Origin: Yuukianura sp. NJ FZ-2021
Taxonomy: Eukaryota
NCBI GenBank assembly: GCA_046563655.1
Contig: CM102285.1
Coordinates: 9,486,001-9,550,000, forward strand
Direction of reading: 5' to 3'
Length of the DNA: 64,000 nucleotides
Part shown: positions 1,863 through 36,022 of the stretch, piece by piece
Layout: each line of letters begins with the position of its first letter
Position numbering within the stretch: the first letter of the stretch is position 1
The notes under the pieces: model-generated
What the model saw: the letters and a program-made list of their open reading frames with translations, nothing else
Told to the model about the DNA's origin: nothing
Database searches by the model: none
Program-made: the position numbers and the translations under genes

Positions 1863-4045
1863 ATGAAAAAGGGAACAAAATTTTTCGCGACGGGTGGGGC
1901 AGTGCTGCTAATTGTTGGAGCAATCATTGGTGGAGTCTTGTATTCGACTAGTAGCTCATCTTCAAGTGAAGATGATCCTGCCACTCTGCAATTGCCACAT
2001 TCCAGAAGACAAGTACTGAAAGTGTTGCAGAACATTCCAGTAATTGATGGGTAATTTTCATTTTGATTAGTAAAAATACATTTTCGATGTAACAAGGGGA
2101 TGGATTATTCAAATTTAAGTGAAAACTTTAATAATAGATTAAATTTAAATTAAATTTTATGTTCCAGGCATAACGACTTTCCCTGGAACGTCCGAAATTT
2201 CTTGTTCAACGACTTAGCACAACTCAACTTCAATTCGCATTTGAACGAAACGGAACCGTGGGCCAGCAGTCCCAATTCACATACTGACATCCCAAGACTT
2301 CGTGAAGGCCATGTTGGAGCACAGGTAAAAATTTTCCATTCATGTTTTTCAAAAAAAAATAGAAACATAGCTTTCCAAGTGAGTAATTCCACAAAAAAGC
2401 GTCATGAACATGATTTCAAATCCTACTCTTCGTTAAGCATTTTCGTCGTGAATGATTTAAAATTTGAAAGTATTTGGCACTTTGTGTTTAGTTTTGGGTT
2501 GCGTACGTGGGATGCAGCGGCCAGTACAAAGATGCTGTGGAGCAGACCGTTGAGCAAATCGATGTCATCAAGAGATTGGCAGCACAGTATTCGGATGACT
2601 TGCAATTTGCAACCAGTGTAGCCGGTAGGCAAAATTTCAAAAGAATTGCATGAACTGTATTCATTGGTTTTGCAAGCTAATTCTCATATTTTAAAATTTT
2701 GCAAATTTTGAAATTGAAGACATTGAAGATGCAATTTCGAGAAACAAGATTGCAAGTCTGATTGGAGTTGAGGGCGGACACTCCATTCAGTCCAGTTTTG
2801 GAATACTGCGCATGCTTTATAACCTCGGAGCTCGTTACATGACCTTGACACACTCTTGCAACACACCTTGGTATCTTATTCTAAAAAAAAACGGTTTTTC
2901 TTTTTTGAGATTACACGGTGTATCTAAATTTCAAAATGTTTTGATTGTGCTTACAGGGCTGACAGTTCTCCAGTAGATGCTTTCAATGCAACAATTTTTG
3001 CAGAGAACAATGGACTGTCTGAATATGGAATCGTAAGTTCTAAACAATTCAATTTAGGCATTTGTTTGGAAAATATGTCTTAAAAACACAAAGTCTTTTC
3101 AAAGAAAACTCATTTTCAAAAAGGGAAATATGTTGCAAATGTTAAAAAATATTTTTGGTTTCAGAAAATTGTTCATGAGATGAATCGGTTGGGCATGATG
3201 ATTGACTTGTCTCATGTGTCAAAGGCAACTATGATATCAGCATTGCAAAATTCCAAGGCCCCAGTCATATTTTCACACTCTTCCGCATGGACCTTATGTA
3301 ATCATCATCGAAACGTACAGGACGATGTCTTGCAGCTTGTTGTAAGCATTTTGATATCAAAAATTGTCAAATTACGAAACAATTCGAACAAAAGCATAAA
3401 TTAGTGACTTTAAAACAGAAAGAGAAGAATTCCTTGGTCATGGTGAATTTCTACAGTTATTTTATCCAATGCGATTCTTCCAAAAATGCAACTTTACAAG
3501 ATGTTGTTCGTAAGTAAAATTTATCGTCAAGCACAACTTACAACTATTTCTCATCATTGAAAATTCGTGTTTTTGTATACTTTGAACAGGGCATATTGAT
3601 CACATTCGAAATATTACTGGTCCGGATCATGTTGGGCTTGGTGCGGACTACGACGGAATAGACAAGCCATCCCAAGGGTTGGAAGATGTCTCAAAATACC
3701 CGGATTTACTTGAAGCCCTCTATGAAACCGGGAGGTGGTCTATTTCGGATTTGGAAAAATTGGCTGGAAAAAATTTGCTTCGTGTATTTGGAGCCGTTGA
3801 GGCGGTAGGTTTAGCACAACACTTTTAGTTGAAATTTCAAACACCAATTCTGTAATCTTTTTTGAATTTAGGTCCGAGATAGTCTTAGTACTTCAGCGCC
3901 AATCCAGGAAACGATGACGCGAGCAGAATTTGAGAACCATGGTGCCAATTTGAATTGCACTACTGCAAAACTCCCGGGTGATGATGCATCTGACAATAAT
4001 GTTCGTAAAAAACGATTTGCGCCAGAAGATTCTCCAGAACTGTGA
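1863..4045 (+). CDS. Membrane dipeptidase (peptidase M19, renal dipeptidase family), copy 1; multi-exon; N-terminal membrane anchor
   Basis: Spliced exons give [63 protein letters not shown] and GLGADYDG, so all M19 metal ligands are present. Hydrophobic segment [19 protein letters not shown] 1863, TGA 4043-4045, GT-AG introns. Confidence 0.92.
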
Positions 4046-4772
4046 AGCTCAAGTTTAGAACGTTCGGGAATAATAAATTATGTAGTAACTTGTTTCGCGA
4101 ATGACTTGCCGCCCATTTATTATCGTTACTAACAAGGCTAAAATATAGTAATATGTTATAATAAATAATTTTTAAGGTATAATTTAGTTTCATGTTTTTG
4201 GGTGCAACGTTGATAGGAACAAACGTTGTGTTTCATGTTGTTCGTGCAAAGCGTAGACCAAAATATAATACTTTTGGTAATTTTTTATTCTGTTAGTGAA
4301 TAGTTATTTTGAGGTTTGCATTCTATGTATTTAGATTTAATGGGAATTTTCTTTTTGATTTGGAATTTGGAAGTTAATTTCTTTCTTAACCTCTTTGTTT
4401 TCATCTCGTCGAAAATCACAATCTGAGATTTCGGGGTTGACGGACTCTTGTCAAAATCAAAATCGGACGCCGCGCCCCTTTCTACGTTAAAGAAAGTTGG
4501 ATTAAAGTGTAGGACTGGACACTGGACAGGCCTGCGGCGAAACCACAACAAGCAAAGGTTGTTGTGTAAAAAAAAAAATGCTTAAAATTTTTTAAAGCTA
4601 CGAGCGTGGCATGTTGGGCACAAAGAACAATCAATAATTTACAGCTTAATTCCGGGTAACGAAAAGGTGTTAATTGCTAACACTTAAGTTCAAGTGGGTT
4701 AAGCGATTCGGTAGTCAAGCCTTGGTCAGTTGAACTGACTTTCTTAAAAACAGCATACGCTACGAATCAAAA

Positions 4773-6718
4773 ATGTTTTCCCTAAAAATTCAATCGTTGC
4801 TTTTGCTTTCCATTTCATTGTACTCGGTAAATTCAGCTCCACCTTCATCCGCGTCTTTGAAAAGAGTTCATAAAATTTTGGCCCAACATCCGCTGATAGA
4901 TTGGTAAGTATTTTCAGAAACAATGAATCTTGAATATTTCTATATATGTATTTCTAATGTCTAGCCACAACGACGTACCATGGAACTTGCGCCATTCTCT
5001 GTACAACGACATTTCCAACTTCGATTTCAAATCTGATTTGAAAAATGATGCGTCGTGGATGAAATTCACGCCAGAGGAGAAGCATACAGACATTCCCAGG
5101 CTTAGAACTGGTGGCGTCGGAGCTCAGGTTTAAGAAACCTAAAATTTTGGAATCTCTTTTATTTTTCAAATTTCAAATTTTAGCCGTAATTTCAATTTGC
5201 AGTTTTGGGCTGCCTACGTGAAATGTGAGAGCCAGTATAAGGATGCCGTGGAACAGACTTTGGAGCAAATCGACGTTGCAAAACGCTTAATCCAAAAGCA
5301 CAGTGCGGATTTACGGTTTGCTACTAGTGTCCAAGGTATGGAATCATTTTTAATACAAATTTCGACTGGAAATCTGTATTTTCCTATTTTTGAAATAATT
5401 TTTTAGACATTCGAGACAGTTTCAAGAAGAACAAAATCGCGAGTTTAATTGGTGTTGAGGGAGGGCATAGCATTCAAAGCAGTTTAGGAATTCTGCGAAT
5501 GTTTTACGAATTAGGTGTCAGATACCTCACGCTTACACACAACTGCAACACCCCATGGTATTAATTAATATATTTAAGTATATTATTAGTTAATAAAAAC
5601 TTAATTACGTTAACAACTTAATGACTTACGATGTATTTAATTTAGGGCTGACTCTTGGAATGACACTGGGGCAAACGCTCACCTTCCGACAAATCACGGG
5701 CTGTCAAAGTTCGGAGTGGTAAAAGTTCACTTTTTCAGCAATTTAGCAGGACGCGAGCGAATTTCATATTTCGCGTTGTAAATCATTTTGTTGAATTGCA
5801 TTTACTGTTTAGCAAATTATTCACGAAATGAATCGTTTGGGAATGATGGTCGACGTGTCACATACTTCGCATGACACGCAGATTCACGCCCTCCAGCACT
5901 CCAAGGCACCAATCATCTTCTCCCACACGGGGATCTTTGCCAAGTGCCCCAAAGGACGCAACGCTGAAGATGATGTTCTAGAACTTCTGGTTCAAATTGA
6001 ATTTCTAGGAAAATTATCAAAAAATCTGTCTCTAATTGATCAAAGTTTGAAAATACTTGTAAATATATGTAGGCGAAGAACAAGGGCGTGGCAATGATAA
6101 GCTTCTATGCTCTGTACGCACGGTGTGACGGAAGCGGAACGAAGGCTACTATGGAAGACGTCATTGGTAACATTACTTAATTTCAAATGTGCTTTGGACT
6201 TAGGTTTACAAAGTGAAAAGTACTTGGGTTTGCAAAATAGGGCACATTGAACATGCTCGAGCAAAGGCCGGTGTCGACAGCATTGGATTTGGAGGAGACT
6301 TTGACGGAGTCGATGTGTACGGTTTATTTTAGATTTTAAACTTCGTTTTGTAAGGTTTTAACTGAAATTTCAAAAAATTCGAAGGTTACCGCAAGGCCTG
6401 GAAGATGTTTCCAAGTATCCAGATCTACTGGCTGCCCTGATCGACACTGGACGCTGGACTGATGAGGACATTCGAAAGATTTCCAGCGGAAATATTCTCC
6501 GCGTATTTTCAGCCGTGGAGGAGGTATTTTCTAAGCAATTCCACTGCACTTTTGTTCAAATAATCAATTTGTATTTGAAATTTCGTTTTTAGGTGAAAAT
6601 ACAATTGGAAAATGACCCTCCTATACAAGATTCGATGACAAGAGCAGAGTTTGCGGAGAAACTAGCAGATCTTTCGGCAATTAAGGCCAAATTCCCAGGA
6701 GATCCAATGGAACCTTAA
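4773..6718 (+). CDS. Membrane dipeptidase (M19), copy 2; predicted secreted
   Basis: Signal-like [22 protein letters not shown], then [39 protein letters not shown] and GFGGDFDG. Intron layout closely parallels copy 1. TAA 6716-6718. Confidence 0.9.
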
Positions 6719-7244
6719 ACTTTACATTTCCTTGCCCCAATTCATCAATTTCTGACGTAAATTATTGAAATTCTTTGCAATTTAATTTATTGCTGACCTC
6801 CTAGACCTAGAGTTCAGAATCATGTTCATTAATTTGGTCACAGGAAAATAAACAAACCCAAAATTAATAGCTTTGAATCTAAGTTTAGAAAACAAGCAAG
6901 TTTAGCGAACGAGGAAGCAAATTTAGAAGGATTACGAGATTTATTTGCAACATTTACGTCTCCGAAAGACGCAAATAGACCATGATTTAATTTCAACCTT
7001 ATTTTTAATCTTTCAAAAGTGATGACTACGCTTTGGAATGACGATGATCGCAAAAAATGACCCCGAAGGTCTAATTCATTAAAGTACAATTGGATTTTGC
7101 AAGCCTGAACTGTTGACACTTCTGCTTGAGCCAAGATATTTGAAAGAATCGCATTTGCAACAAGTTGGGACAGTCGTGAAAGCATTTGAAAATTGCTGGA
7201 CAATGCATTTGTTAAGCGTACCCGCAAATTGTATTAGTTAGGTC

Positions 7245-9508
7245 ATGGAGTGGTACTACGTGTGGAGTAAGAAACAATTTCAACAACTAAACTTTTTAAA
7301 TATTTTTAAGTTATAAATAAAATTTTGAAATTGATTTTAAATAATTTAGGGAACCCTGGAGTTCGGCTCTGCGCTATTCTCATTGTAGTAATTGCAGTCA
7401 TCAGTGCTATTAGTACGATTTTAGTGTATGCCCTCAGTGAAAACCTTACGGCTCAAGAAAAAGCTGAAAGACTTTTAGCCGAAGTGCTGCTATTTGACGG
7501 GTTGGCTGACAATATTCTAAGTTCGAAATTTTGGGAATTTTGAAAATTTGAGTTTTTTCATTTTAGACATAATGACTTCCCGACTAATGCCCGGCTTTTG
7601 GTTCGTAATGATCTAAGTCTCTTCAATTTTTCACAAAATCTGACAGAAGATGAACATTTTTCGAAAAGCAACTACTCAAAAACTGATTTACTTCGACTTC
7701 GAACTGGAGGTGTCAAGGCTCAGGTGGCGATTAGACATTTTGTCAAAATTCAAAATTTTTTTTTTATCATATTTTTTTTTTATTCGAAATTTTGTTTATT
7801 TAAAATTTAAAGTTTATTTAAAATTTTGTTTATTTAAAATTCAAAATTTTGTTTTTTGGAAACTATATTTGTATTGGCAGTTTTGGGTAGCGAGAGCGGA
7901 ATGTGACAGTCAGTTCAAAGACGCAGTGGCGATTGTGATGGAACAAATTGACTTGATTAAGAGACTTGCTGCTAACTACAGTACAGATATGGCTCTGGTG
8001 ACATCATATGAAGGTAAATTACAAATCATGATTTACTATCATTTTGATTACCTTAAATAAATAAATGTGCATTCCAGAGTTGATGGCTGCAACAGAGGAA
8101 AATAAAATTGCGAGCATGATTACAGTTTGTTGTGGAAATTCAATCCAGTGGAGCTTTGCCATTTTGAGACAGTTTTATGACCTTGGTGTACGGGCTTTGA
8201 CCTTAGTTCCAGCTCTGTGTTCCACTCCATGGTAAATCGAAAAAATCAAAATTTATTTCAAAATGCTAAAAATTTGGAAATACATAAAGCTTACGGTTGG
8301 TTTTGCTTATTTCATATTATTCTGTTCAGGGGAGACTCATCTGTAGTAGATAGACCAAATCTCACCCATAAAATGCGACCTTGGAACAGCGGCCTTTCAT
8401 CTTTTGGAGAAGTTTGTCAAAATCAAAAATTTTGAAAAAAGAACCATAGTTTCACGATTTAAGTTTCTGAAAATATTTATATGCTCACTAGGAAATTATT
8501 TATGAGATGAATCGGCTTGGGATGATCGTTGATGTTTCTGAGTCTTCGGTGGGAACGATGAAGGAAGTTCTGATTCTATCCAGGGCTCCAGTCATATTTT
8601 CCCATTCTGCTGCAAATTCTATTTGTAACAACGAAAGGAATATTCCAGACGATGTTCTCAAATTAGTAGTACGGAAAATTTCAACCAACAATTACGTTTT
8701 TTTTTAAATTGCGAAACCTAAAAACTGTTACCACCATTTCAGAGACAAAAGGATGCTCTGATAATGGTCACATTTGATCCAAGCGTCCTCAGATGTGATG
8801 ACCAAAATGTTACAATTGCTGACGTCGTCGGTGAGTCAAGCACAATTTAAGCTGAACTTTCGACGTTAAAATCGAAATAGTCGTTAAAACATATTCTACT
8901 TTCAAATTTTTACACTGTTTAATACTTCCAGAACACCTTGAGTATTTGCGGGACAAGACGACTATTGACAACATTGGGATTGGAAGTGACTTTGATACTA
9001 TCGATTCGTATGTTTTCAGTTTTAGGATTCAAAACTGTCGGAAATTTCAGTTTTCAAACATTTTTCAAAAATTTTGAGTCTAACTTTAACCAAAATTTGC
9101 TTTACTTTGTGTAGAGTGACTGAGGGACTGGAAGATGTTTCAAAATTTCCTAATCTGTTTGCAGCCCTAATTGAAACGGAGCGTTGGTCGGACGAAGATT
9201 TAGAAAAATTGGCAGGAAAAAATATGTTGCGGGTTTTGCAAGACGTTGAAGCTGTAAGGAAACGAAAATATCAAGTTTTTCTGACTTTTTATTTCTGAAA
9301 TTTTGAAAGAAATTTTGAATTCCAGGTGAGAGACAAGATGTCAGACGTGAGTCCGGTACAATCGTTCATCAAACTGGGAGACTTGAAGAAATTAGGTTAC
9401 GATCTTTCGTGTTCCTCTAACATTTTACATGAACCACAACCACAACCGCAATTTGATCTTTCGAAATTGGGTCGATTGGTTCCAAAAACCAACTATGACC
9501 TACCATAA
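7245..9508 (+). CDS. Membrane dipeptidase-like protein (M19), copy 3; probably catalytically inactive
   Basis: Short first exon MEWYYVW, then TM segment [33 protein letters not shown] and GSDFD are kept. VEGGHS becomes VCCGNS, TLTH becomes TLVP, and DLSH becomes DVSE. Start exon is inferred. Confidence 0.82.
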
Positions 9509-19492: not shown

Positions 19493-20297
19493 ATGAATGT
19501 CCAAGAAAGTTTGGATTCTACCTCAAAAGAAATGGTGAGCAAAATTCCAGACTTTTAGAACAATAAATTGTTTAGAACTGGGGACAAATCCTGCTAATTT
19601 CAATCTTAAAGTCTGAAATTCAGTTTTCCAATTCTTTTAGTCTCTTTTACTGGAAAGGCTGGAATTGCTGGAGAAATTGAGCAACTCTCCAGGCCCAGTG
19701 GCTCCAAGTTCCAAAAAAGTTGCAAAGGAGACTTTGCAGCGGTATACGACGCGCGCAGAGGACCTCGGTTTGAAACAACTCAAAGATCGACTAGAAGATC
19801 TTTGTTTCCAGCTACTCCACCCCGTCGAACGAAATCGAATTATCGAAAAAGTCAGATGCATCTTCGGTCTTCCAGGTCGTGACACCTTGAGACTCATTTT
19901 GGACAACTTGACCAAAACGCTTTTGTCCAATGGCCTTGGTCACTTTGAAATTCTGGGAAGACAGAAAACTCCATTTTCAATTTACCAAAAACTGAAGCGG
20001 AAGTCACTAGAAGTAGAACAACTACGAGATGTCCTTGGTTTCCGAGTAATCGTTTCGTCTATTCCGGAATGCTACATGACCATGTCCATTCTACATGACA
20101 TTTTCCCTATGGAGATCAGTGGATTCAAGGACTACATTATGTTTCCCAAGGATGAAGGGTACCAGTCCCTCCACACGACCATCATTGGTCCTTACCAGAA
20201 ACGAATCGAAGTTCAAGTGAGGACTGTGGACATGGACACTTACACCAAGGCCACTTTGTACAAGGAGTACTGGAAACAAAAGACTTCATTTGTCTAA
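19493..20297 (+). CDS. RelA/SpoT-family (p)ppGpp synthetase, synthetase-domain only (~232 aa), two exons; likely horizontally acquired from bacteria
   Basis: Exon 1 is 19493-19534 (MNVQESLDSTSKEM|GTGAGC). The intron 19535-19640 ends TTCTTTTAG and exon 2 (19641-20297) is in frame. Synthetase motifs: GRQKTPFSIYQKLKRK, LRDVLGFRVIV, FKDYIMFPKDEGYQSLHTT, IEVQVRT. The upstream helices VAKETLQRY..AEDLGL..LKDRLEDLCF match the end of the Rel hydrolase domain. There is no HD motif and no TGS/ACT domain. Confidence 0.9.
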
Positions 20298-23050: not shown

Positions 23051-26000
23051 ATGTCAACCAAATTGTATCAAGAGTTGAACTCTTCGACAGCGGAAGACGA
23101 AGCCAACGATTCTGAATTGAAAAATCAGCTGGAATTTGATGAAAAATTTTCGGAAAACGAGGCTTGGATCATTGTTGACAGCTACTTTAAGAAATTCAGC
23201 ATCTCAACTCAACAAATAGAATCTTATAACGACTTTGTGGACAACATGATTCCAAGGATTTTGGACGACGTTCCTGAAATCAAAATTGAAGATCCAGTCA
23301 AGAAGGTAAGTCATTCCAACTCCAGCATTGTTAAGCCTAAAACCAAATTGTCTATTGTAACCTGATGACAACATGTCACCTTATGAAAATCTAATATCGT
23401 TTTTGGTCGTTTTCAGAAGATACATCATTTTGAGTTTACTTCTGAGGGATATGAACTGAGACAGCCCTGTTTTATCGAATGTGACGCAGAGGTATCGGCA
23501 ATCTACCCTAATACTGCACGTCTTCGGAATATATCCTACGCTGGAGACCTGTCAGTTAAAGTCAAATACATGACAACGGTCGAGCGGAAGTTGAAGAAAG
23601 AAGTTACTCCTGGTAGAGCAACCACGAAGAAGAAGAACTTTGTCATAGGGAGAATCCCTATAATGGTCATGTCGAAATACTGTCGACTGGCGAGCTTGGA
23701 TCCTGCATTGCTTCAGAATACTCGAGAGTGTCCAATGGACCCAGGAGGATACTTCATTATCGAAGGCAAAGAAAAGGTAAGCCCTGAATGGTTCCTTGAA
23801 ATGATATGATATACTTGTCCAATATGCTTTCAAGAAATGCAATGCGAACATTTTTGCTGGTAGGTGGTGATCTCACAAGAACGTGCTGCTAACAATACAC
23901 CGTTTGTGTTTCGAAAATACTCGAACTCGAAATCATTACTGGAGTGCGAAATCAGGTCTGCCAAGGAAGACACCTCTGCCTCTGCTAGAGCGTTTTGGGT
24001 GAAACTGTTTCAGCAGAAAAAAAGAATTGACGACAAACGTGGTATTTGGAAAAAGACAAGCGAGATGTTCTGCAAGGAGTTCATAATCAAAGTACATTTT
24101 CCCGGACTTTCGTCAGATGTTCCGCTTCATGTTCTCTACCAAGCAATTGGATTCGATAACCCGAAACTCGTGTACGAATCTATTGTCGAAGTATGCTCCA
24201 ACCATGTCACCAGCCTTGAACAAGCTAGTCTAAGTTGTATTGTGCCAATGTTACTGCCATCACTCCAAGCTTGGAAATCTCTATCCGCAGATGAAGCCAA
24301 AGATGAAATAGGTACTTACCATCATTTCTGCCAGTAGTAATGTGATCTTAAGCTTCGCTGAACTTTTGTTTCGGTTTTTAGGCACTTATTATGTTCGACC
24401 TAAAACAGACTACAGCAGATACAGCGTTGACGAAGAAATGTTCGAGGAGCAGACGAGGCAGGAACGACATAGATTTGTTTCTGATTTGTTGTTACACGGA
24501 TTCTTGCCTCATATTGGAACGGAGGCTTCGGTAGAGTGTTTCAGGAGGAAGGGCTTGTTTTTATCGTACATGGTTTGGAAACTTCTCATGGTGTTCGCTG
24601 GCAAAATCCCACATGATGACAGGGACCACCTTGAAAACAAACGTTATCAGTGTAGCGGACCCTTACTGGCACAAATTTTTCAACAAGGCCTGCACTCCCT
24701 ACGACAAGAAATGGAAAAACTGCTACGAATGCAGATTCGTAAGGGCGAGGATCCGGATATTGGTAGAGCAATGTCGCCTACATTTATCACTAACTACATC
24801 AAGCACTGCCTGGCTTCCGGAACATGGGGAAATATACGTGAGATGCGAAGCAAGAACAGTCGCATTTATTCCAACGTGACGCAGGTAAGTCGTAATTAAA
24901 CCAGTTCACTTTGACATTTTTTTCATTTGATGATTTTTCTAATCTGCAATACTTTCAAAATAGGAGCTGAACAGATACACACGAAATTCTCATTTGTCGT
25001 CTCTCCGTCGATTGAGCAGCGCAGAAGACAAACTTTCACTCATGACAGTTCCACGACAACTCCATTCCACTTACTTTGGATTCATTTGTCCGTTCGAGAC
25101 TCCCGAAGGTGTATCAATTGGGTTGAGCAAGAATATGGCACTTTTGGCCCAAATCACAGTTAGCGTTCCTATTCAAAAAGTAATCGAGTTTACCATATCA
25201 GAAGGTGGAGTGACTCTACTTGAAGATGTGGTAAATAACAAACTTTACAGAACGTGGTAAGCCTCTGAACTTTTTCTTTGGAAATACTGAACGTCGCAGT
25301 TTCATTGAAATGTCAATTTTCTGTTTTAGTGTCACCAAAGTTTTTGTGGATGGGCGATGGATTGGGTCGGTGGAGCATCCAACAGCATTTGTTACAAAGT
25401 TCAAGGCGGCAAGAGTATCTGGCGAGCTGAGCCACTACATCTCTATCTGTTGGGATCGTTCAACCAGGGAGATTTACATTAGAGCAGACGCAGGGAGACT
25501 TTGTCGTCCCTTACTCGTGGTTCGTAATAACTGCCTTGTTCTGCAACCTGAACACGTCAGTAAACTGAAAACAGGGGAGTTAGGGTGAGCGGTTACATAT
25601 TTTCTTTCCTGAGATTTAAGTTAATTTTTTAAGTTAATGTTAACTGAATTACCATAAACTTAATACAATCATTTTTAAGGTGGAGCGATCTTATTCGGCT
25701 GGGATGTGTTGAGATAATCGATGTTCGAGAATCTGAATCCTGTCTGATTGCAATGGATTTACCTACATTGAAGAGTTCAACCGATTCAAATTCAAACCTA
25801 AAGAAATTCACGCATATGGAGATTCATCCAGCACTCATAATGGGGATATGTGCCTCAACCGTTCCGTTCCCAAATCATACCCAGTCGCCTCGGATTGTCT
25901 ATCAGGTTAATTTTTTATATTCTAAGTGATTTGTTTCATTTGATCAAAATCTTTGTTTGAAAAGGCTGGAATCGCAAAGCAAGCAATGGGTATTTACGGA

Positions 26001-28180
26001 GCAAACCTGTTCAATCGGATGGATACAACATCACATTTCTTGAACTACGGTCAACGCCCTATTGTCCAAAATAAGTCGATGAGATATTTCAATTTTGATG
26101 AAGTTCCGGCTGGAACTGTCTGTACAGTGGCTATTGCGGCATATACCGGATATAATATGGAGGACTCCATCTTGCTCAACCGCTCTTCTGTGGAAAGAGG
26201 ACTCTTTCGAGCCACGATGCTCAACACGTATCAGGAGAAGGCAGAGAAAATTCGTTACGCCGATTCGGCAAGCGTAAGACCCGATTTTGTATTACAAGAT
26301 ACTAAAAAAAAGCATTTTAGAATTTTTGAAACAAATATGATGACAGGAATACGTGTTCACCTATCCAAGCTGTAAGGTAACACAAGGAGTAAAAGTCATT
26401 GGTACCGGATGCAGCGAAGAAGAAAAAATGAAGTTGTATAGGAATATTGGAACGGATGGGCTTCCTACCCCAGGGGAGAGGCTTGGCTATCGTGACATTG
26501 GCAACGTCAAACGTAAAAGTATGTCATCATACTCTAGAGACTACGATGCGTTGGAACAGCAGGCCATCATTGGTACGTTACATTCAATGTTTTCAAAATG
26601 GCGGGTTGATGAACTTTATCATTTCCAACTTTGTTGCATTTTTTGGTAAATGCTTAGGAAAAGTGAGGTGTCTTACCGAGAAAGAAATTCAGGAAGCCTC
26701 AGCAAAACTGAGCGGAAGGGACCCACATAGACTGAACAAAATCGAAAGTCCATTCGTCTTCCAAGACGCAAGCAAGTTCGATCGGAAACCAATATTTTCA
26801 TGCATTGACAACGTTCTCGTAACGATGAATTCGATCGGGGAACGACTCGTGAAGGTTCGAACTCGGAAGCAACTGAAGCCACAAGTAGGAGATAAGTTTG
26901 CTTCACTTCATGGCCAAAAAGGTGTCATTGGATTAGATTACCATGAAGTTGTAAGTTTTAATTTGTTATAATTTTAACATCAGCAGTTTGACATGAATTA
27001 GCTATCGTAATTATTGGAATGAAATTTTTTGCAGGATTTGCCTTTTACCAGTCAAGGCATTATTCCAGACTTGATAATGAATCCGCATGGGATCCCCTCC
27101 CGGATGACAATTGGACAGCTATATGAGTCACTTTATGGCAAGGCTGCGTGTTTGGCGGGTAAAATAATGGACGGTACGACTTTCCATGCTCGAAACCGCC
27201 AAAAAATGGAAGATATACTGAAGGCTCACGGTTTTTACGAAGACGGAACAGAAGTAATGTACTGTGGGCATACCGGGAGAAAGATGAATTCTCGAATTTT
27301 CATTGGACCCACCTACTATCAGGTTAGAAGCGTCTTACTAAAAAAAATTATGGAGTTAGCTTCCGCAAAACTGGTTCTGTGGTACTTTATCACGTACAGA
27401 CATAATGTTGCATTAATCGGTTTGGTTTCAACTTGTTTTTTTAGCGTTTGAAGCATTTGGTCGACGACAAAATTCATTCTCGAGCCCGTGGAACCGTCGA
27501 AGTCCTTACACAACAACCTGTCCAAGGCTTTTCTCGTGAAGGAGGCTTGAGATTTGGCGAAATGGAGCGAGACTGTATCATTTCCAACGGCTCCTTTCTG
27601 TTTTTGATGGAACGACTAATGGATGTAAACCACCAATATTTTCAATTCTTTTGTGCTTTCAAACATCTCGAAAATTATGGAAGTGTTCACTACTTAACAT
27701 CTTACAACTTAAAATTAGTAGCTTAAAACGTGGTGAAATACCAAAAGTACACACGTTAGTCGTCATGGATTGCTTGCTGATTCTGATCTCTTATAGGTCT
27801 CGGATGCCAAGAAGTTTACGATCTGTTCAGAATGTGGATTTGTTGGTAGCAAGAGTCCGCTGTGGGTGGAAGAAGCGAAAGACAAAGGAGCCCGCAGAGC
27901 AGTGATAAAGAAGTCTCCAGTTTGCACGTCATGCGGCAAAGAAACCGATACCAGGATCCATAACCCTCAGGTAAGCCTAGCTGTGTTGTTTTAGTGTGTG
28001 CTAGAGTTTGAAAATATCAACCGATGTGTGATGGGAGACTTTTTAAAAAACGTTTTACTTTGAATGTAGTGTTACACGGTACGAATTCCTTATGCCGCCA
28101 AATTGCTTTTCCAAGAGCTCATGTCGATGAATATCGCTCCCAGAATTGTTCCCGCTGAAGGCAGGAGCACCACTTCATAG
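23051..28180 (+). CDS. Divergent RNA polymerase II second-largest subunit (RPB2/POLR2B-like) paralog; ~14 exons, ~1,300 aa
   Basis: Approximate exons: 23051-23305, 23417-23776, 23864-24311, 24382-24884, 24964-25256, 25330-25584, 25680-25905, 25965-26273, 26348-26572, 26658-26950, 27035-27321, 27445-27624, 27797-27970, 28070-28180. Motifs: [123 protein letters not shown], Zn ribbon [28 protein letters not shown]. Confidence 0.92.
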
Positions 28181-28391
28181 TGAAATGAGCATGTGGGAGG
28201 ATCTTATCGTTAGTTGCTTATTTTTAGAGAATTTTAGTGAAGAAATTCAGAGATTTAAATTATACGTTATAAAACGACTTTATAAAATAGTTATACCGAA
28301 GGCGTTATAAATAAACCGAAATTCCAAATTCTCTCGACCTTCAGCTTTTTTTTTTGAAACAACTAATATTTTATTTGATAAATTAACGAAT

Positions 28392-31300
28392 CTAACCGCT
28401 AGAATGAATAACATATAGGATCCAGTCGATAATATCTTGAAGCGGAGTGACAGTGATCCTCTTGTGTTGACCATGGGGACCATACGAGCATTCCGTTCCG
28501 TAGGAAACGACTCCAACGATGACAGCACGACTGTAGTCGTCAGCTTCATATTCCGCGGGAATTGCGGAGATCTTGTACTCGTGTTTGTACTCCGGTTGAG
28601 GATAGTAAGGCGCTGCCGCTTTGTACTCCTGCTTCGGTTCGTAGGAAGGCTTGTACTCTGGCTTGGACTGGTAGGACGGTTTCGGATAAGACGCTGGCTG
28701 GTAATACTCTGCTGCCCGCTTGTATCTTGGCTGGTACGGTTCCGAGTACTCCGGCTGATACACTGGTGCATATTCCGGTTGATACGTCGGTTGATACTCT
28801 GGCTGATATGGAGGTTGGTACTCCGGTTGATACTCTGGCTGATATGGCTGGTACTCGGGTTGGTAGCTCGGCTTGTACTCCGGTTCGTACGCTGGCTTGT
28901 ATTCTGGCTGATATGGCTGGTACTCGGGTTGGTAGCTCGGCTTGTACTCCGGTTCGTACGCTGGCTTGTATTCTGGCTGATATGGCTGGTACTCGGGTTG
29001 GTAGCTCGGCTTGTACTCCGGTTCGTACGCTGGCTTGTATTCTGGCTGATATGGCTGGTACTCGGGTTGGTAGCTCGGCTTGTACTCCGGTTCGTACGCT
29101 GGCTTGTATTCTGGCTGATATGGCTGGTACTCGGGTTGGTAGCTCGGCTTGTACTCCGGTTCGTACGCTGGCTTGTATTCTGGCTGATATGGCTGGTACT
29201 CGGGTTGGTAGCTCGGCTTGTACTCCGGTTCGTACGCTGGCTTGTATTCTGGCTGATATGGCTGGTACTCGGGTTGGTAGCTCGGCTTGTACTCCGGTTC
29301 GTACGCTGGCTTGTATTCTGGCTCGTAAGATGGTTTGTACTCAGGCTGGTAACTGGGCTTGTACTCCGGTTCGTAGGATGGTTTGTACTCCGGCTCGTAA
29401 GATGGTTTGTACTCAGGCTGGTAGCTCGGCTTGTACTCCGGTTCGTACGCTGGCTTGTATTCTGGCTCGTAAGATGGTTTGTACTCGGGCTGGTAGCTCG
29501 GCTTGTACTCAGGTTCGTACGCTGGTTTGTACTCCGATTCGTAAGCTGGCTTGTACTCCGGTTTGTACTCGGGCTGGTAGCTTGGCTTGTATTCTGGTTC
29601 ATACGACTTGTACTCCGGCTTGCATTCGGAATGGTATTCTGGTTTGTAGTAAGCCTCATCCTTCGGCTTGTACTCGGGTCCATAGGCTGGTTTGTACTGG
29701 GATTTGTACTCTGGCTCGTACGAAGGCTTGTATTCGTGCTGGTAGCTCGACTTGTATTCTGCGTGATAAGGTGCGTAGTGGTATTCGTATTTCGCAGGAA
29801 CTAAACAAAAGACCGGGGCTCCTTCGTCAGCCTAAAATTAAAATTCCAATTATTCTCCAATTTTGGATTACAAGTATTCAAAATTCCAATGTCGGTTTGC
29901 TTACATGACAAGTGTCGTAGTAATCCTCAGCTTCCCAGTTCTCAGTCTTGTAATGTTTTTCGTAGCCATAGCCCTGTTTGTAGGAAGGCGCGTAGTTTTG
30001 GTACTCGTACACCTTTGTGATTTGCGCTTTCCGTGGAGTTCTGCTGGGTTCGTAGTAGTCGTAATAGGTGGTGGGTTTGTAGGAGTAACCGTGGCCATAC
30101 TGCGTCGATTCCTCCTTCTGCTGCTTGTACTAAAATTATTTTTCAAAAGTTAAGAGTTTGGTCATCACATTTTGAGCGGTATTGCCAGTTTAGCAAAGAG
30201 AGAGAGAGTTACTTACTGAAATTTTCTCAACAGGAGAATGCTTCCACCCGGCGGTCCAGCAAACTACATCATTGTCCTTGGAACGGCGAGGTAGCCCGAA
30301 GTACTTGTTGTAATACGGTTTCTCTTGGTAGTATGACTTTTGCTTCTGGTAGTATTCCGGAAGGCAGATGGGATCTGCGTGTGGATGGACATCGAAGTCA
30401 ATTTCTTCGTAAAGTTCCAGAATGACCACGTCATACTCGTATTGGTTTTCCTTAGGATACCCCTTTTGCGCTGCAAAGTTAAAGTAAATCAATTGAGTGA
30501 GGTTTCATTCAATGGTTGAGTAGTGGCTGAAAACGAGCATTGGAAAACTTTGGCCAAGATAACATACCAGGGTTGTAATGATGAATTTTGCTAACAGCGA
30601 ATTCATGATTTCTGTAGGCCTCCAATGAATTGTGGTCCGACAGAAGATCGAATTCTCCAATGCGTACAACTACCTCGCCCTCGCGTCTCCCATGAATGGC
30701 CTTGGAAGAAGTCAAGATGTGTCTGTAAAGATGAAACAGATTACAATGATAGGTAAAGTTATCTCTTATGACAATTTCTAATTACACACCAATTTGCATT
30801 TTAGCAAAATGAATACCTGGGTGAGATGATGGTTCCAGCGGCCAGATAGACATGTCGCGTGTCCAGAACTGCTACAAGCCATGGAAACTCACCGAATGCC
30901 AATCGTTGCAGATCATTACCATATTCAATACGGTGAACCGCTGGAAGAATGCCACACTGTCGACTCGAATTGGCTGGCCGATACTGGAAATAAAAAAAAA
31001 TCTACGTGACCTTCTGAAATTCCAATAAACTAGGCTACGGTCAGTCTAAAAAGGAGGTGAACAAACTCTGAAGGTCATTTCAACTTACGTCGATTTCAGT
31101 CTCGTACGTTGGCTTTTCGTAGTAAGTCGGCTTTTCATAGCTCGGTTTCTCGTAGTACGTTGGCTTTCCGTAGCTCGGTTTTTCGTAGTACGTTGGCTTT
31201 CCGTAGCTCGGTTTCTCGTAGTACGTTGGCTTTCCGTAGCTCGGTTTCTCGTAGTACGTTGGCTTCTCGTAGCTAGGCTTTTCGTAGTGCGTTGGCTTCT

Positions 31301-31637
31301 CGTACGCAGGCTTCTCATAATAAGTTTTTGGCTTCTCGTAGCTCGTTTTCTCGTAGTACGCTGGCTTTTCGTAGCTAGGCTTTTCGTAATGGGCAACTGG
31401 GTAGACTGGTCCAGGCGGAAGACTGTAAGCGGGGTCGTATTCAGCTCCGCTTCCGCTTCCCACGAACACCAAAACGATTAGCAACATCTTCGCTGCTCCG
31501 AAGATCCAGCCGCGATGGGTTTGTATTTCAGCTGAAATAAGAACAGAATGTTAGCTAGCTTGTAAAACTGGAGGACAACCAAATGTATGTACAGTAGCGA
31601 AACTAAAGCCAGGTCAAGAGGTCAAATGCTTACCCAT
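28392..31637 (-). CDS. Secreted non-catalytic serine protease homolog with Tyr/Pro/Lys/Glu-rich repeats, copy A
   Basis: ATG 31637 in a micro first exon (ATGG|GTAAG). Signal MLLIVLVFVGSGSG, then YEKPS/YEKPT repeats. Trypsin-fold motifs: FGEFPWLVAV, AAGTIISPR|HILTSSKA (His lost), YDVVILEL, PICLP, CWTAGW, DTCH|ADEGAPVFC (Ser lost). A long EYKP(S/A)Y(Q/E)P array follows, then VIVGVVSYGTEC...IIDWI. TAG 28392-28394. Confidence 0.85.
28837..29319. repeat. Coding minisatellite: 7 copies of a 69-bp unit (23 aa, EYKPAYEPEYKPSYQPEYQPYQP on the minus strand)
   Basis: Unit starts at 28837, 28906, 28975, 29044, 29113, 29182 and 29251. It is flanked by more degenerate 12/24-bp periodic repeats. Confidence 0.9.
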
Positions 31638-32822: not shown

Positions 32823-32847
32823 AAATGCTTTTTGTGAAATAATGTAG

Positions 32848-32958
32848 TGTTACACGGTCCGAATTCCTTATGCCGCCAAATTGCTTTTCCAAGAGCTGAT
32901 GTCGATGAATATCGCTCCCAGAATTGTTCCCGCTGAAGGCAGGAGCACCACTTCATAA
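32848..32958 (+). other. Duplicated terminal exon of the RPB2 paralog (intact acceptor AG, identical peptide)
   Basis: Encodes [36 protein letters not shown]. It differs from 28070-28180 only by GTA>GTC, CTC>CTG and TAG>TAA. Confidence 0.88.
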
Positions 32959-33167
32959 TGAAATGAGGAGGTGGGAGGATCTTATCGTTAGTTGCTTATT
33001 TTTAGAGAATTTTAGTGAAGAAATTCAGAGATTTAAATTATACGTTATAAAACGACTTTATAAAATAGTTATACCGAAGGCGTTATAAATAAACCGAAAT
33101 TCCAAATTCTCTCGACCTTCAGCTTTTTTTTTGAAACAACTAATATTTTATTTGATGATTAACGAAT

Positions 33168-36022
33168 CTAACCGCTAGAATGAATAACATATAGGATCCA
33201 GTCGATAATATCTTGAAGCGGAGTGACAGTGATCCTCTTGTGTTGACCATGGGGACCATACGAGCATTCCGTTCCGTAGGAAACGACTCCGACGATGACA
33301 GCACGACTGTAGTCGTCAGCTTCATATTCCGCGGGAATTGCGGAGATCTTGTACTCGTGTTTGTACTCCGGTTGAGGATAGTAAGGCGCTGCCGCTTTGT
33401 ACTCCTGCTTCGGTTCGTAGGAAGGCTTGTACTCTGGCTTGGACTGGTAGGACGGTTTCGGATAAGACGCTGGCTGGTAATACTCTGCTGCCCGCTTGTA
33501 TCTTGGCTGGTACGGTTCCGAGTACTCTGGCTGATATGGCTGGTACTCGGGTTCGTACGCTGGCTTGTATTCTGGCTCGTAAGATGGTTTGTACTCGGGC
33601 TGGTAGCTCGGCTTGTACTCCGGTTCGTACGCTGGCTTGTATTCTGGCTCGTAAGATGGTTTGTACTCGGGCTGGTAACTCGGCTTGTACTCCGGTTCGT
33701 AAGCTGGTTTGTACTCTGGTTCGTAAGCTGGTTTGTACTCCGGTTCGTAAGCTGGCTTGTACTCCGGTTCGTACTCGGGCTGGTAGCTCGGCTTGTATTC
33801 GGGCTCGTAAGCTGGCTTGTACTCCGGTTTGTACTCGGGCTGGTAGCTCGGCTTGTATTCGGGCTCGTAAGCTGGCTTGTACTCCGGTTCGTACTCCGGC
33901 TGGTAGCTTGGCTTGTATTCTGGTTCATACGACTTGTACTCCGGCTTGCATTCGGAATGGTATTCTGGTTTGTAGTAAGCCTCATTCTTCGGCTTGTACT
34001 CGGGTCCATAGGCTGATTTGTACTGGGATTTGTACTCTGGCTTGTATTCGTGCTGGTAGCTCGACTTGTATTCTGCGTGATAAGGTGCGTAGTTGTACTC
34101 GTATTTCGCAGGAACTAAACAAAAGACCGGGGCTCCTTCGTCAGCCTAAAATTAAAATTCCAATTATTCTCCAATTTTGGATTACAAGTATTCAAAATTC
34201 CAAATTCGGTTTGCTTACATGACAAGTGTCGTAGTAATCCTCAGCTTCCCAGTTCTCAGTCTTGTAATGTTTTTCGTAGCCATAGCCCTGTTTGTAGGAA
34301 GGCGCGTAGTTTTGGTACTCGTACACCTTTGTGATTTGCGCTTTCCGTGGAGTTCTGCTGGGTTCGTAGTAGTCGTAATAGGTGGTGGGTTTGTAGGAGT
34401 AACCGTGGCCATACTGCGTCGATTCCTCCTTCTGCTGCTTGTACTAAAATTATTTTTAAAAAGTTAAGAGTTTGGTCATCACATTTTCAGCGGTATTGCC
34501 AGTTTGGCAAAGAGAGAGAGTTACTTACTGAAATTTTCTCAACAGGAGAATGCTTCCACCCGGCGGTCCAGCAAACTACATCATTGTCCTTGGAACGGCG
34601 AGGTAGCCCGAAGTACTTGTTGTAATACGGTTTCTCTTGGTAGTATGACTTTTGCTTCTGGTAGTATTCCGGAAGACAGATGGGATCTGCGTGTGGATGG
34701 ACATCGAAGTCAATTTCTTCGTCAAGTTCCAGAATGACCACGTCATACTCGTATTGGTTTTCCTTAGGATACCCCTTTTGCGCTGCAAAGTTAAAGTAAA
34801 ATCAATTGAGTGAGTTTCATTCAATGGTTGAGTAGTTGCTGAAAACGAGGATTAGAAAACTTTGGCCAAGATAACATACCAGGGTTGTAATGATGAATTT
34901 TGCTAACAGCGAATTCATGATTTCTGTAGGCCTCCAATGAATTGTGGTCCGACAGAAGATCGAATTCTCCAATGCGTACAACTACCTCGCCCTCGCGTCT
35001 CCCATGAATGGCCTTGGAAGAAGTCAAGATGTGTCTGTAAAGATGAAACAGATTACAATGATAGGTAAAGTTATCTCTTATGACAATTTCTAATTACACA
35101 CCAATTTGCATTTTAGCAAAATGAATACCTGGGTGAGATGATGGTTCCAGCGGCCAGATAGACATGTCGCGTGTCCAGAACTGCTACAAGCCATGGAAAC
35201 TCACCGAATGCCAATCGTTGCAGATCATTACCATATTCAATACGGTGAACCGCTGGAAGAATGCCACACTGTCGACTCGAATTGGCTGGCCGATACTGGA
35301 AATAAAAAAAAATCTACGTGACCTTCTGAAATTCCAATAAACTAGGGTACGGTCAGTCTAAAAAGGAGGTGAACAAACTCTGAAGGTCATTTCAACTTAC
35401 GTCGATTTCAGTCTCGTACGTTGGCTTTTCGTAGTAAGTCGGCTTTTCGTAGCTCGGTTTCTCGTAGTACTTTGGCTTGTCGTAGCTCGGTTTCTCGTAG
35501 TACGTTGGCTTTTCGTAGCTCGGTTTCTCGTAGGGCGTTGGCTTTTCGTAGCTCGGTTTTTCGTAAGCCGGCTTCTCGTAGCTAGGTTTCTCATAGTACG
35601 TTGGCTTCTCGTAGCTCGGTTTTTCGTAAGCCGGCTTCTCGTAGTACGTTGGCTTCTCGTAGCTAGGCTTCTCATAGTACGTTGGCTTCTCGTAGCTCGG
35701 TTTTTCGTAAGCCGGCTTCTCGTAGCTAGGCTTTTCGTAGTACGTTGGCTTCTCGTGCGTAGGCTTTTCGTAATGGGCAACTGGGTAGACTGGTCCAGGC
35801 GGAAGACTGTAAGCGGGGTCGTATTCAGCTCCGCTTCCGCTTCCCACGAACACCAAAACGATTAGCAACATCTTCGCTTCTCCGAAGATCCAGCCGCGAT
35901 GGGTTTGTATTTCAGCTGAAATGAGAACAGAATGTTAGCTAACCTGGTAAACCTGGAGGACAACCAAATGTATGTACAGTAGCGAAACTAAAGCCAGGTC
36001 AAGAGGTCAAATGCTTACCCAT
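33168..36022 (-). CDS. Secreted non-catalytic serine protease homolog with Tyr/Pro-rich repeats, copy B
   Basis: Same exon structure as copy A, with a longer N-terminal YEKP array and a shorter internal EYKP array. ATG 36022, TAG 33168-33170. Confidence 0.85.

Follow-up and report, generated by a model that had tools for sequence, protein, structure and literature searches.

An intact, fast-evolving RPB2-type gene in an animal-type genome, probably an extra and specialised paralogue of the RNA polymerase II second-largest subunit

Animals have three nuclear RNA polymerases, and to our knowledge extra polymerases derived from RNA polymerase II (Pol II) have been established only in plants. The present work deals with a divergent RPB2-type gene, here named RPB2X, which lies at 23051..28180 on the plus strand of a stretch of 64,000 nucleotides (nt) from Yuukianura sp. 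NJ FZ-2021 (contig CM102285.1). This whole stretch is referred to as the window. A preliminary description, made from the DNA letters, had taken the gene for a full-length but highly divergent paralogue of RPB2, the second-largest subunit of Pol II. The analysis reported here leads in the same direction: RPB2X is intact, selectively maintained and fast-evolving, and it is probably an extra copy of this subunit, put to a specialised use. No report of a divergent RPB2 paralogue in an animal was found in the literature searched, which was a limited library.

Among the described systems, the shared second-largest subunit of plant Pol IV and Pol V, NRPD2/NRPE2, offers an instructive parallel. Haag et al. 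(2009; PMC2605557) report that NRPD2/NRPE2 accumulates substitutions ten times faster than NRPB2, that its metal-B site is kept and required, and that its hybrid-binding region is a hotspot of change. The plant subunit resembles RPB2X in being a lineage-specific protein of Pol II type that evolves fast, keeps metal B and is changed where the hybrid is bound; unlike it, RPB2X is found in an animal-type genome. Another parallel is the ciliate Oxytricha trifallax, for which two Rpb2 paralogues are described (PMC5312943), the second one being differently used. The likeness here lies in a second, differently used eukaryotic RPB2 gene, although the lineage is unrelated. The giant viruses (Nucleocytoviricota), among them the alga-infecting Mimiviridae with their duplicated Rpb2 pairs, also carry a Pol II-like RPB2, which like RPB2X is about 30-37% identical to the cellular one; unlike RPB2X, these viral genes are without spliceosomal introns and are located in viral genomes. 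With the canonical RPB2 (POLR2B / RpII140), RPB2X has in common the seven ordered domains, the metal-B Glu-Asp pair, the Lys pair, the four-Cys ribbon and the Pol II-type motifs.

The coding span of RPB2X could be placed exactly, from an ATG at 23051 to a TAG ending at 28180. With the exons placed by reading frame and splice sites, the coding sequence amounts to 3921 nt, with 1306 codons up to the TAG and no internal stop. It is divided into 14 exons by 13 introns of 59-172 nt each, all of which are GT..AG. The coordinates, the exon number and the intact open reading frame (ORF) of the preliminary description are thereby confirmed. The parts of the gene are given below, where P0121, L001 and L002 denote relatives of RPB2X that are introduced further on.

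23051..28180, plus strand: whole coding span of RPB2X, 14 exons, 1306 codons
23051..23305, plus strand: exon 1, start codon and N-terminal protrusion, with a weak Rpb2_1 match (17 bits)
23417..23776, plus strand: exon 2, protrusion, Rpb2 domain 1 (96.2 bits); P0121, L001 and L002 break at the same end
23864..24311, plus strand: exon 3, lobe with family-specific insertions; no Pfam match, P0121 56% identical
24382..24884, plus strand: exon 4, end of the lobe, fork and fork loop 1 (four residues longer); ends at an intron common to canonical-type RPB2 fragments
24964..25256, plus strand: exon 5, Rpb2 domain 3 with an altered fork loop 2 (Pfam, alignment)
25330..25584, plus strand: exon 6, Rpb2 domain 4 (79.1 bits)
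25680..25905, plus strand: exon 7, Rpb2 domain 5 with QSPR (Pfam, alignment)
25965..26273, plus strand: exon 8, start of domain 6, AGIAKQ, and GYNMEDS with the metal-B Glu-Asp (Pfam, phmmer, alignment)
26347..26572, plus strand: exon 9, wall region with insertions; no Pfam match, conserved in L001
26658..26950, plus strand: exon 10, hybrid-binding motif with Arg replaced by Leu (Pfam, alignment)
27035..27322, plus strand: exon 11, domain 6 with PSRMT, the most conserved long exon (131.8 bits)
27445..27624, plus strand: exon 12, the replaced TRQPxEGRSR segment followed by GEMERD (Pfam, alignment)
27797..27970, plus strand: exon 13, zinc ribbon CxxC...CxxC with insertions (alignment)
28070..28180, plus strand: exon 14, C-terminal clamp helix and stop codon (Pfam, alignment)

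When the exon translations were searched against Pfam, 11 of the 14 matched the Rpb2 domains 1 to 7 at E<=0.01, and they did so in the canonical order (1, 1, 2, 3, 4, 5, 6, 6, 6, 6+7 and 7). The top match was that of exon 11 (E = 4.5e-38). Exons 1 and 14, which are among these 11, score under Pfam's cut-off, and no match was obtained in this search for exons 3, 9 and 13. The features that define the superfamily of second-largest subunits (Rpb2/beta/B), namely the seven domains in order, the metal-B Glu-Asp, the two Lys and GEMERD, are all found in RPB2X. The GC content at third codon positions is 0.46, which is inside the range of the neighbouring genes (0.36-0.52), and the introns are AT-rich. 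By composition and by its intron-rich structure, RPB2X is native to the host genome.

A copy of exon 14 with its 3' flank (28063-28400) is present 4.8 kb downstream, at 32841..33176 on the plus strand, with 97.6% identity over 338 nt. The orphan exon 14 at 32848-32955 is a by-product of a tandem duplication that has recently affected the genes downstream, and the copy does not belong to a second RPB2X gene.

The polymerase class of RPB2X was assessed by phmmer, with the translations of exon 8 and exon 4 as queries against all PDB chains. The scores were as follows.

Animal Pol II RPB2: exon 8, 97.2 bits; exon 4, 73.5 bits
Yeast RPB2: exon 8, 83.8 bits; exon 4, 69.9 bits
Archaeal subunit B: exon 8, 89.7 bits; exon 4, 58.5 bits
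Pol III RPC2: exon 8, 69.9 bits; exon 4, 35.1 bits
Pol I RPA2: exon 8, 52.8 bits; exon 4, no match
Plant NRPD2: exon 8, 46.4 bits; exon 4, 38.9 bits
Poxvirus and African swine fever virus subunits: exon 8, about 30 bits; exon 4, about 22 bits

At full length, the spliced RPB2X was compared by blastp with 120 collected proteins. The top matches were the RPB2 of Trinorchestia (811 bits) and that of Lingula (807 bits), each at 37% identity, followed at a distance by an archaeal-type row (684 bits) and by giant-virus-type rows (about 510-560 bits). With animal RPB2 on top in both exons and over the full length, the earlier assignment to the Pol II type holds, and RPB2X can be classed from its sequence as a Pol II-type second-largest subunit. 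A Pol I or Pol III subunit was rejected, since RPA2 and RPC2 score below animal RPB2 with both exons. With exon 8, RPB2, archaeal B and RPC2 all score higher than the NRPD2 chains, and with exon 4, RPB2 and archaeal B do so. Orthology with the plant subunit was rejected on these scores (46.4 against 97.2 bits and 38.9 against 73.5 bits); RPB2X is, judging by them, an analogue of NRPD2 and not a member of its family.

RPB2X has relatives in other sequence collections. A word search with the Pfam-silent lobe exon 3 found one relative among 151 candidates, P0121, which is 56% identical. A HMMER search of exon 4 against 1.84 billion representatives gave a single match below 1e-30, P0122 (65%), and three weaker family fragments, P0135 (56%), P0207 (49%) and P0123 (40%). 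The other listed matches that were compared with the window protein are ordinary RPB2-like sequences with about 27-42% identity. This search returned fragments only, and the window's own spliced product was not among them. When metagenomes were scanned with family-specific peptide patterns, 22 loci were obtained. One metagenome is the source of two of them, L001 and L002, which show 51% identity in the best segment and contain P0122 and P0135; the remaining 20 are 28-36% identical and giant-virus-like. L001 is a contig of 6456 bp with a near full-length relative, in which 737 of 1204 aligned residues (61%) are identical to those of RPB2X. No stop interrupts its frame across the aligned exons, and nearly all the odd motifs of RPB2X are seen in it again. 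As judged from the breaks in the tblastn alignment, 12 of the 13 introns of RPB2X sit at the same places in L001, intron 1 falling at the contig edge, and L001 has two introns beyond these. The idea that RPB2X is a mis-spliced canonical gene was rejected because its insertions and odd motifs recur in L001.

Besides L001, the family has four further members: P0121, L002/P0135, P0123 and P0207. The window gene, L001 and P0121 are 50-57% identical to one another, and L002, P0123 and P0207 are 53-65% identical, as against 34-52% between these two sets, which suggests that the family consists of two old groups. With one member of each group in the same metagenome, it is possible that there are two paralogues per genome. 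P0121, P0122, P0123, P0135 and P0207 are each a singleton, unnamed cluster in a collection of 15 billion proteins. From these comparisons, RPB2X is a member of a small, previously unannotated gene family that is present in several animal-type genomes. As a separate observation on L001 (4692-5366 and 6085-6336), its last exon is extended by about 90 acidic residues relative to the window gene, and a downstream ORF has a WGSWSAC motif. Read from the motif alone, this ORF would be thrombospondin-type-1-like, which fits an animal source.

The degree of divergence from canonical RPB2 is considerable. In a 22-row alignment, RPB2X and Lingula RPB2 are identical at 457 of 1161 aligned positions (39%). 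By blastp, the Lingula protein is 57-64% identical to rows taken as distant eukaryotes (60% to a named apicomplexan), and the animal RPB2s of this sample are 81-86% identical among themselves. RPB2X therefore lacks the conservation expected of a canonical Pol II RPB2, with 39% against at least 57% between the distant eukaryotes sampled, and it is for this reason read as non-canonical. It is also about 130 residues longer than Lingula RPB2 (1174 residues). The extra length is made up of ten internal insertions of at least four residues and of extensions at both ends. The insertions lie in the protrusion and lobe (residues 141-147, 263-272, 315-321 and 359-373), in fork loop 1 (510-513), in the wall region (901-911, 930-951 and 975-985) and in the zinc ribbon (1235-1249 and 1262-1268). 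All of them are present in L001 too. Thus, the lobe and wall insertions noticed earlier are real and recurrent, and fork loop 1 and the zinc ribbon have to be added to them.

At the same time, the core of the protein is well kept. A column was regarded as near-invariant when at least 19 of 20 rows from outside the family agreed, these rows being eukaryotic, giant-virus, archaeal and unlabelled metagenomic; there are 141 such columns. RPB2X keeps 133 of them and L001 keeps 130, with two or three of the L001 departures at projection edges. The eight departures of RPB2X compare with 0-2 in canonical eukaryotic rows, 9-13 in giant-virus rows and 4-29 in archaeal rows. The metal-B Glu-Asp, QSPR, both Lys of GDKF..HGQKG, PSRMT, GEMERD and the CxxC...CxxC ribbon are all kept in the alignment. 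The preliminary description had quoted several of these motifs as retained catalytic-site residues, and every one of them is present there.

Seven near-invariant positions are changed in both RPB2X and L001, and RPB2X alone adds an eighth. In Lingula numbering, T450S and G465N flank the lengthened fork loop 1, N570D is common to both proteins, and R938L replaces Arg by Leu in the hybrid-binding GDKFASRHGQKG motif. The Arg that is lost where SRHGQKG has become SLHGQKG is present in 19 of the 20 comparison rows. Fork loop 2 is changed in both proteins as well. The strongest cluster of changes comprises R1072Q, E1076Q/K and R1078F, in the segment directly before GEMERD; these are three positions of TRQPxEGRSR, which are conserved in 19-20 of the 20 rows and had escaped the preliminary description. 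We take this segment to lie in or near switch 3. From the structure of Pol II, the changed elements are presumed to contact the template, the non-template strand or the hybrid, or to serve initiation factors. The near-invariant changes that had been pointed out earlier are all real, though they are not of equal weight. SLHGQKG and the altered fork loop 2 are common to L001 and gain by it. The change of NQED to NMED is absent from L001, which has NQED, and archaeal rows carry Met or Ile there; AGIAKQ in place of SAMGKQ resembles the archaeal AGMAKQ/AAMVKQ. These two are weaker and archaeal-like.

The comparison with L001 also gives a measure of selection. Over 1161 aligned codons, the non-synonymous distance (dN) is 0.30. 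The synonymous sites are saturated, with a synonymous distance (dS) of 2.6 by LWL85 and only 28% identity at four-fold sites, and the NG86 and YN00 methods fail on this saturation. The ratio of the two (omega) is about 0.12 or lower. Identity between the two genes is graded, reaching 74-80% in the catalytic exons and falling to 48-56% in the lobe, wall and C-terminal ribbon. Because dN is 0.30 while dS is saturated, RPB2X is under purifying selection, and neutral decay, which had been named beforehand as an outcome that would refute the extra-copy reading, is excluded by this comparison. The family nevertheless evolves much faster than canonical RPB2: the tree distance from RPB2X to L001 is 0.58, against 0.22 between brachiopod and crustacean RPB2.

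The reading of RPB2X as an extra copy draws on two further points. Residues that are kept even by archaea and giant viruses are replaced in it, and a UBE2C-like exon of the window shows ordinary conservation (38 of its 54 positions agree with human UBE2C), an indirect indication that the host lineage is not generally hyper-divergent. The earlier statement that this is not the housekeeping RPB2 gains indirect support from this exon and from the 39% identity. It is proposed that RPB2X would assemble with a largest subunit, either RPB1 or an as yet unseen paralogue of it, and with the shared small subunits, and that the resulting Pol II-derived enzyme would still catalyse RNA synthesis. Most likely RPB2X still works inside a polymerase, a prediction that follows from the catalytic and assembly core being kept under purifying selection. 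The remodelled parts would be fork loops 1 and 2, the hybrid-binding motif with its Arg to Leu change, the Arg/Glu/Arg triplet before GEMERD, and the loops of the lobe, wall and zinc ribbon. Such remodelling would be expected to alter the holding of template and hybrid and the binding of factors, as in plant Pol IV/V. The suggestion of a neofunctionalised, Pol IV/V-like subunit, made in the preliminary description, fits this pattern by analogy, in that metal B is kept, the protein is fast-evolving yet constrained, and the changes would fall in elements that contact nucleic acids.

The origin of the family was approached through trees and introns. Its stem is long, with 0.94-1.14 substitutions per site. 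A 43-row tree was built from rows picked by hand out of 123, plus L001, with an IQ-TREE quick search under LG+C20+F+G4 (posterior mean site frequencies, PMSF). The approximately unbiased (AU) tests used 22 hand-picked rows and 1109 columns; each constraint was searched in a fast mode, and the resulting trees were tested, as fixed trees, together with the best tree. Their results for three placements were as follows.

Family sister to, or within, three animal rows: AU p 0.009 (LG+F+G4); 0.094 (LG+C20+F+G4)
Family on the eukaryote side of the split: AU p 0.092 (LG+F+G4); 0.227 (LG+C20+F+G4)
Family with four giant-virus rows: AU p 0.32 (LG+F+G4); 0.29 (LG+C20+F+G4)

The better, site-heterogeneous LG+C20+F+G4 model rejects none of the three, and under it the log-likelihood penalty of the animal placement is halved, from 49.9 to 24.6 log units. 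This halving is what long-branch attraction would produce, though it is not proof of it. As for the introns, a phase-0 intron after ..VTQ (Lingula Q468|V469) coincides with a break after GVSQ in four canonical-type RPB2 fragments (P0132, P0137, P0184 and P0257). Each of these stops matching after GVSQ and then reads on with Val, so that the translation appears to have read through a GT donor, that is, through an intron at the same position.

Several results weigh against an extra Pol II copy of animal descent. In a FastTree tree of 123 rows, the family joins archaeal subunit B with a local support of 85. In the 43-row tree, it falls in a polytomy with viral and metagenomic clades, without a supported sister, and stands outside the canonical eukaryote clade, a clade that has a support of 92 in the Shimodaira-Hasegawa-like approximate likelihood-ratio test. 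The animal sister placement is rejected under LG+F+G4 (the p of 0.009 above). Of the signature columns, only 3 of 33 are in common with animals, along with 2 of 138 for Megaviridae-type rows and 1 of 20 for archaea, all of which are too weak to decide the origin. A comparison of intron positions with canonical RPB2, which had been put forward as a check on duplication, came out divided: Q468|V469 is common to the four fragments, and the RPB2X intron at Lingula 321|322 is not found in the canonical-type fragments, which leaves one of two comparable introns shared. Moreover, the canonical-type fragment P0124 is without the 468 intron, and the site of this intron, CAG|GT, is a favoured place for intron gain. 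The calibration of the lineage comes from a single exon of 54 residues, and no partner RPB1 paralogue was seen among the window ORFs scanned.

These results bear most directly on the possibility of a domesticated viral gene, in which a viral Pol II-like RPB2, from the nucleocytoplasmic large DNA viruses or others, was captured by an animal ancestor, gained introns and now serves the host, for instance in antiviral defence or silencing. The preliminary description had offered this as one of its two explanations, and the trees are compatible with it: in maximum-likelihood trees the family lies among viral and metagenomic clades and not with canonical eukaryotic RPB2, and a giant-virus sister relation is rejected under neither model. 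The best matches of the most conserved exon (up to 61%) are metagenomic, giant-virus-like proteins, the near-invariant departures of giant-virus RPB2 (9-13) are close to the eight of RPB2X, and a foreign-looking RelA/SpoT ORF lies 2.8 kb upstream. We nevertheless hold viral capture to be unlikely. The full-length scores of giant-virus rows are well under those of animal RPB2, and the closest relatives in IMG/VR, where 116 pattern matches yielded 6 confirmed loci, reach only 30-33% identity in exon 4. RPB2X has 13 introns, 12 of which are older than the split from L001 and one of which is at a position of cellular canonical-type RPB2. No viral hallmark family was seen among 136 further window ORFs, the composition is like that of the neighbours, and the animal-sister penalty shrinks under the better model, as expected for long-branch attraction. 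What marks a gene of Nucleocytoviricota, namely a viral genome or insertion, hallmark neighbours and the lack of introns, was not found for RPB2X. The high intron density, the introns that predate the L001 split, the 468 intron, the missing viral hallmarks, the IMG/VR result and the composition are together hints that favour a cellular origin.

A moonlighting paralogue, which has left the polymerase for a role independent of transcription, is also unlikely. One of the Oxytricha Rpb2 paralogues reportedly acts in genome rearrangement independently of transcription, a precedent known from a paper's title (Khurana et al. 2014), and three (nearly) invariant positions in nucleic-acid-contacting segments are replaced in RPB2X along with one hybrid-binding Arg. 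If catalysis and assembly were lost, however, the core positions would drift freely; instead, 133 of 141 are unchanged, among them the metal-B pair, both Lys and the zinc ribbon, and the catalytic exons are the most conserved ones between RPB2X and L001. That RPB2X is the sole RPB2 of a fast-evolving lineage, with a whole clade having a hyper-divergent Pol II, is given a small chance. The core residues are kept, and an FBXO-like exon of the window has no word-sharing relative among 25 candidates from the protein collection, which hints at an isolated lineage. Yet the 39% identity lies far outside the 57-64% of the sampled distant eukaryotes, residues (nearly) invariant over archaea, giant viruses and eukaryotes are replaced, and the UBE2C exon is ordinarily conserved; besides, the members of the family differ from one another by 34-65%, and a single metagenome contains both L001 and L002. 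That RPB2X is a dead or dying duplicate, which drifts without being transcribed, is hardly credible, as 1306 codons are open, the 13 splice-site pairs are intact, L001 has no stop in frame across the aligned exons, and the conservation, with dN at 0.30 against a saturated dS, is graded by functional region.

The neighbouring genes are of animal type, which is consistent with the animal source assumed in the preliminary description. They include an FBXO30/40-like gene, trypsins, Kazal inhibitors and M19 dipeptidases, and at 2695-9295 on the plus strand a membrane dipeptidase gene (Peptidase_M19) is present three times in tandem. The upstream RelA/SpoT sequence is a lone ORF of 218 codons (19641-20294), on the same strand as RPB2X, with a strong match to the RelA/SpoT synthetase domain (Pfam, 101.9 bits; positions 131-308 of 687 of TIGR00691). 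No hydrolase, TGS or other domain of RelA/SpoT homologues was found among 27 plus-strand ORFs near it. Horizontal transfer is one possible explanation; the ORF may otherwise be a fragment, or an alarmone synthetase of an unusual, animal kind. Downstream of RPB2X, two tandem pairs of repeat-rich genes are located on the minus strand, at 28395-29831, 33171-34145, 31083-31550 and 35395-35934. One pair looks by eye like a trypsin-like protease homologue with ADEGAP in place of the active-site motif GDSGGP, for which Pfam gave no match; a long series of PEYKPSYE-type repeats, with units of 24 and 69-72 nt, interrupts it. In the other pair there are YEKPSYEKPTYY repeats, which bring to mind Tyr/Lys/Pro proteins of adhesive or structural function. 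At 50996-51523, there is a GC-rich tandem repeat with 5-6 copies of 85-88-nt units and a GC content of about 0.56, with long Pro/Gly-rich ORFs on both strands. A search of the window against Rfam gave no match.

If RPB2X is indeed an extra, specialised Pol II-type subunit, it would show that a polymerase has been duplicated and specialised a second time, independently of the plants and in animals. A further step, which we regard as a tentative proposal with somewhat less than an even chance of being right, is that a fourth multisubunit RNA polymerase operates in the nuclei of a clade of animals; the RPB2X family would supply its catalytic second-largest subunits, and it would have arisen independently of plant Pol IV/V. 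With its hybrid-binding and fork elements remodelled, such an enzyme would be suited to a template or product out of the ordinary, for instance in RNA pathways of the germline or of transposon silencing. For annotation, the finding means that the members of this family, which are unnamed in look-ups of the protein collection, may be recognised as a family that was previously unannotated. It also opens a testable question: whether some animal lineage has a fourth polymerase, on which template it would act, and which RNA it would make.

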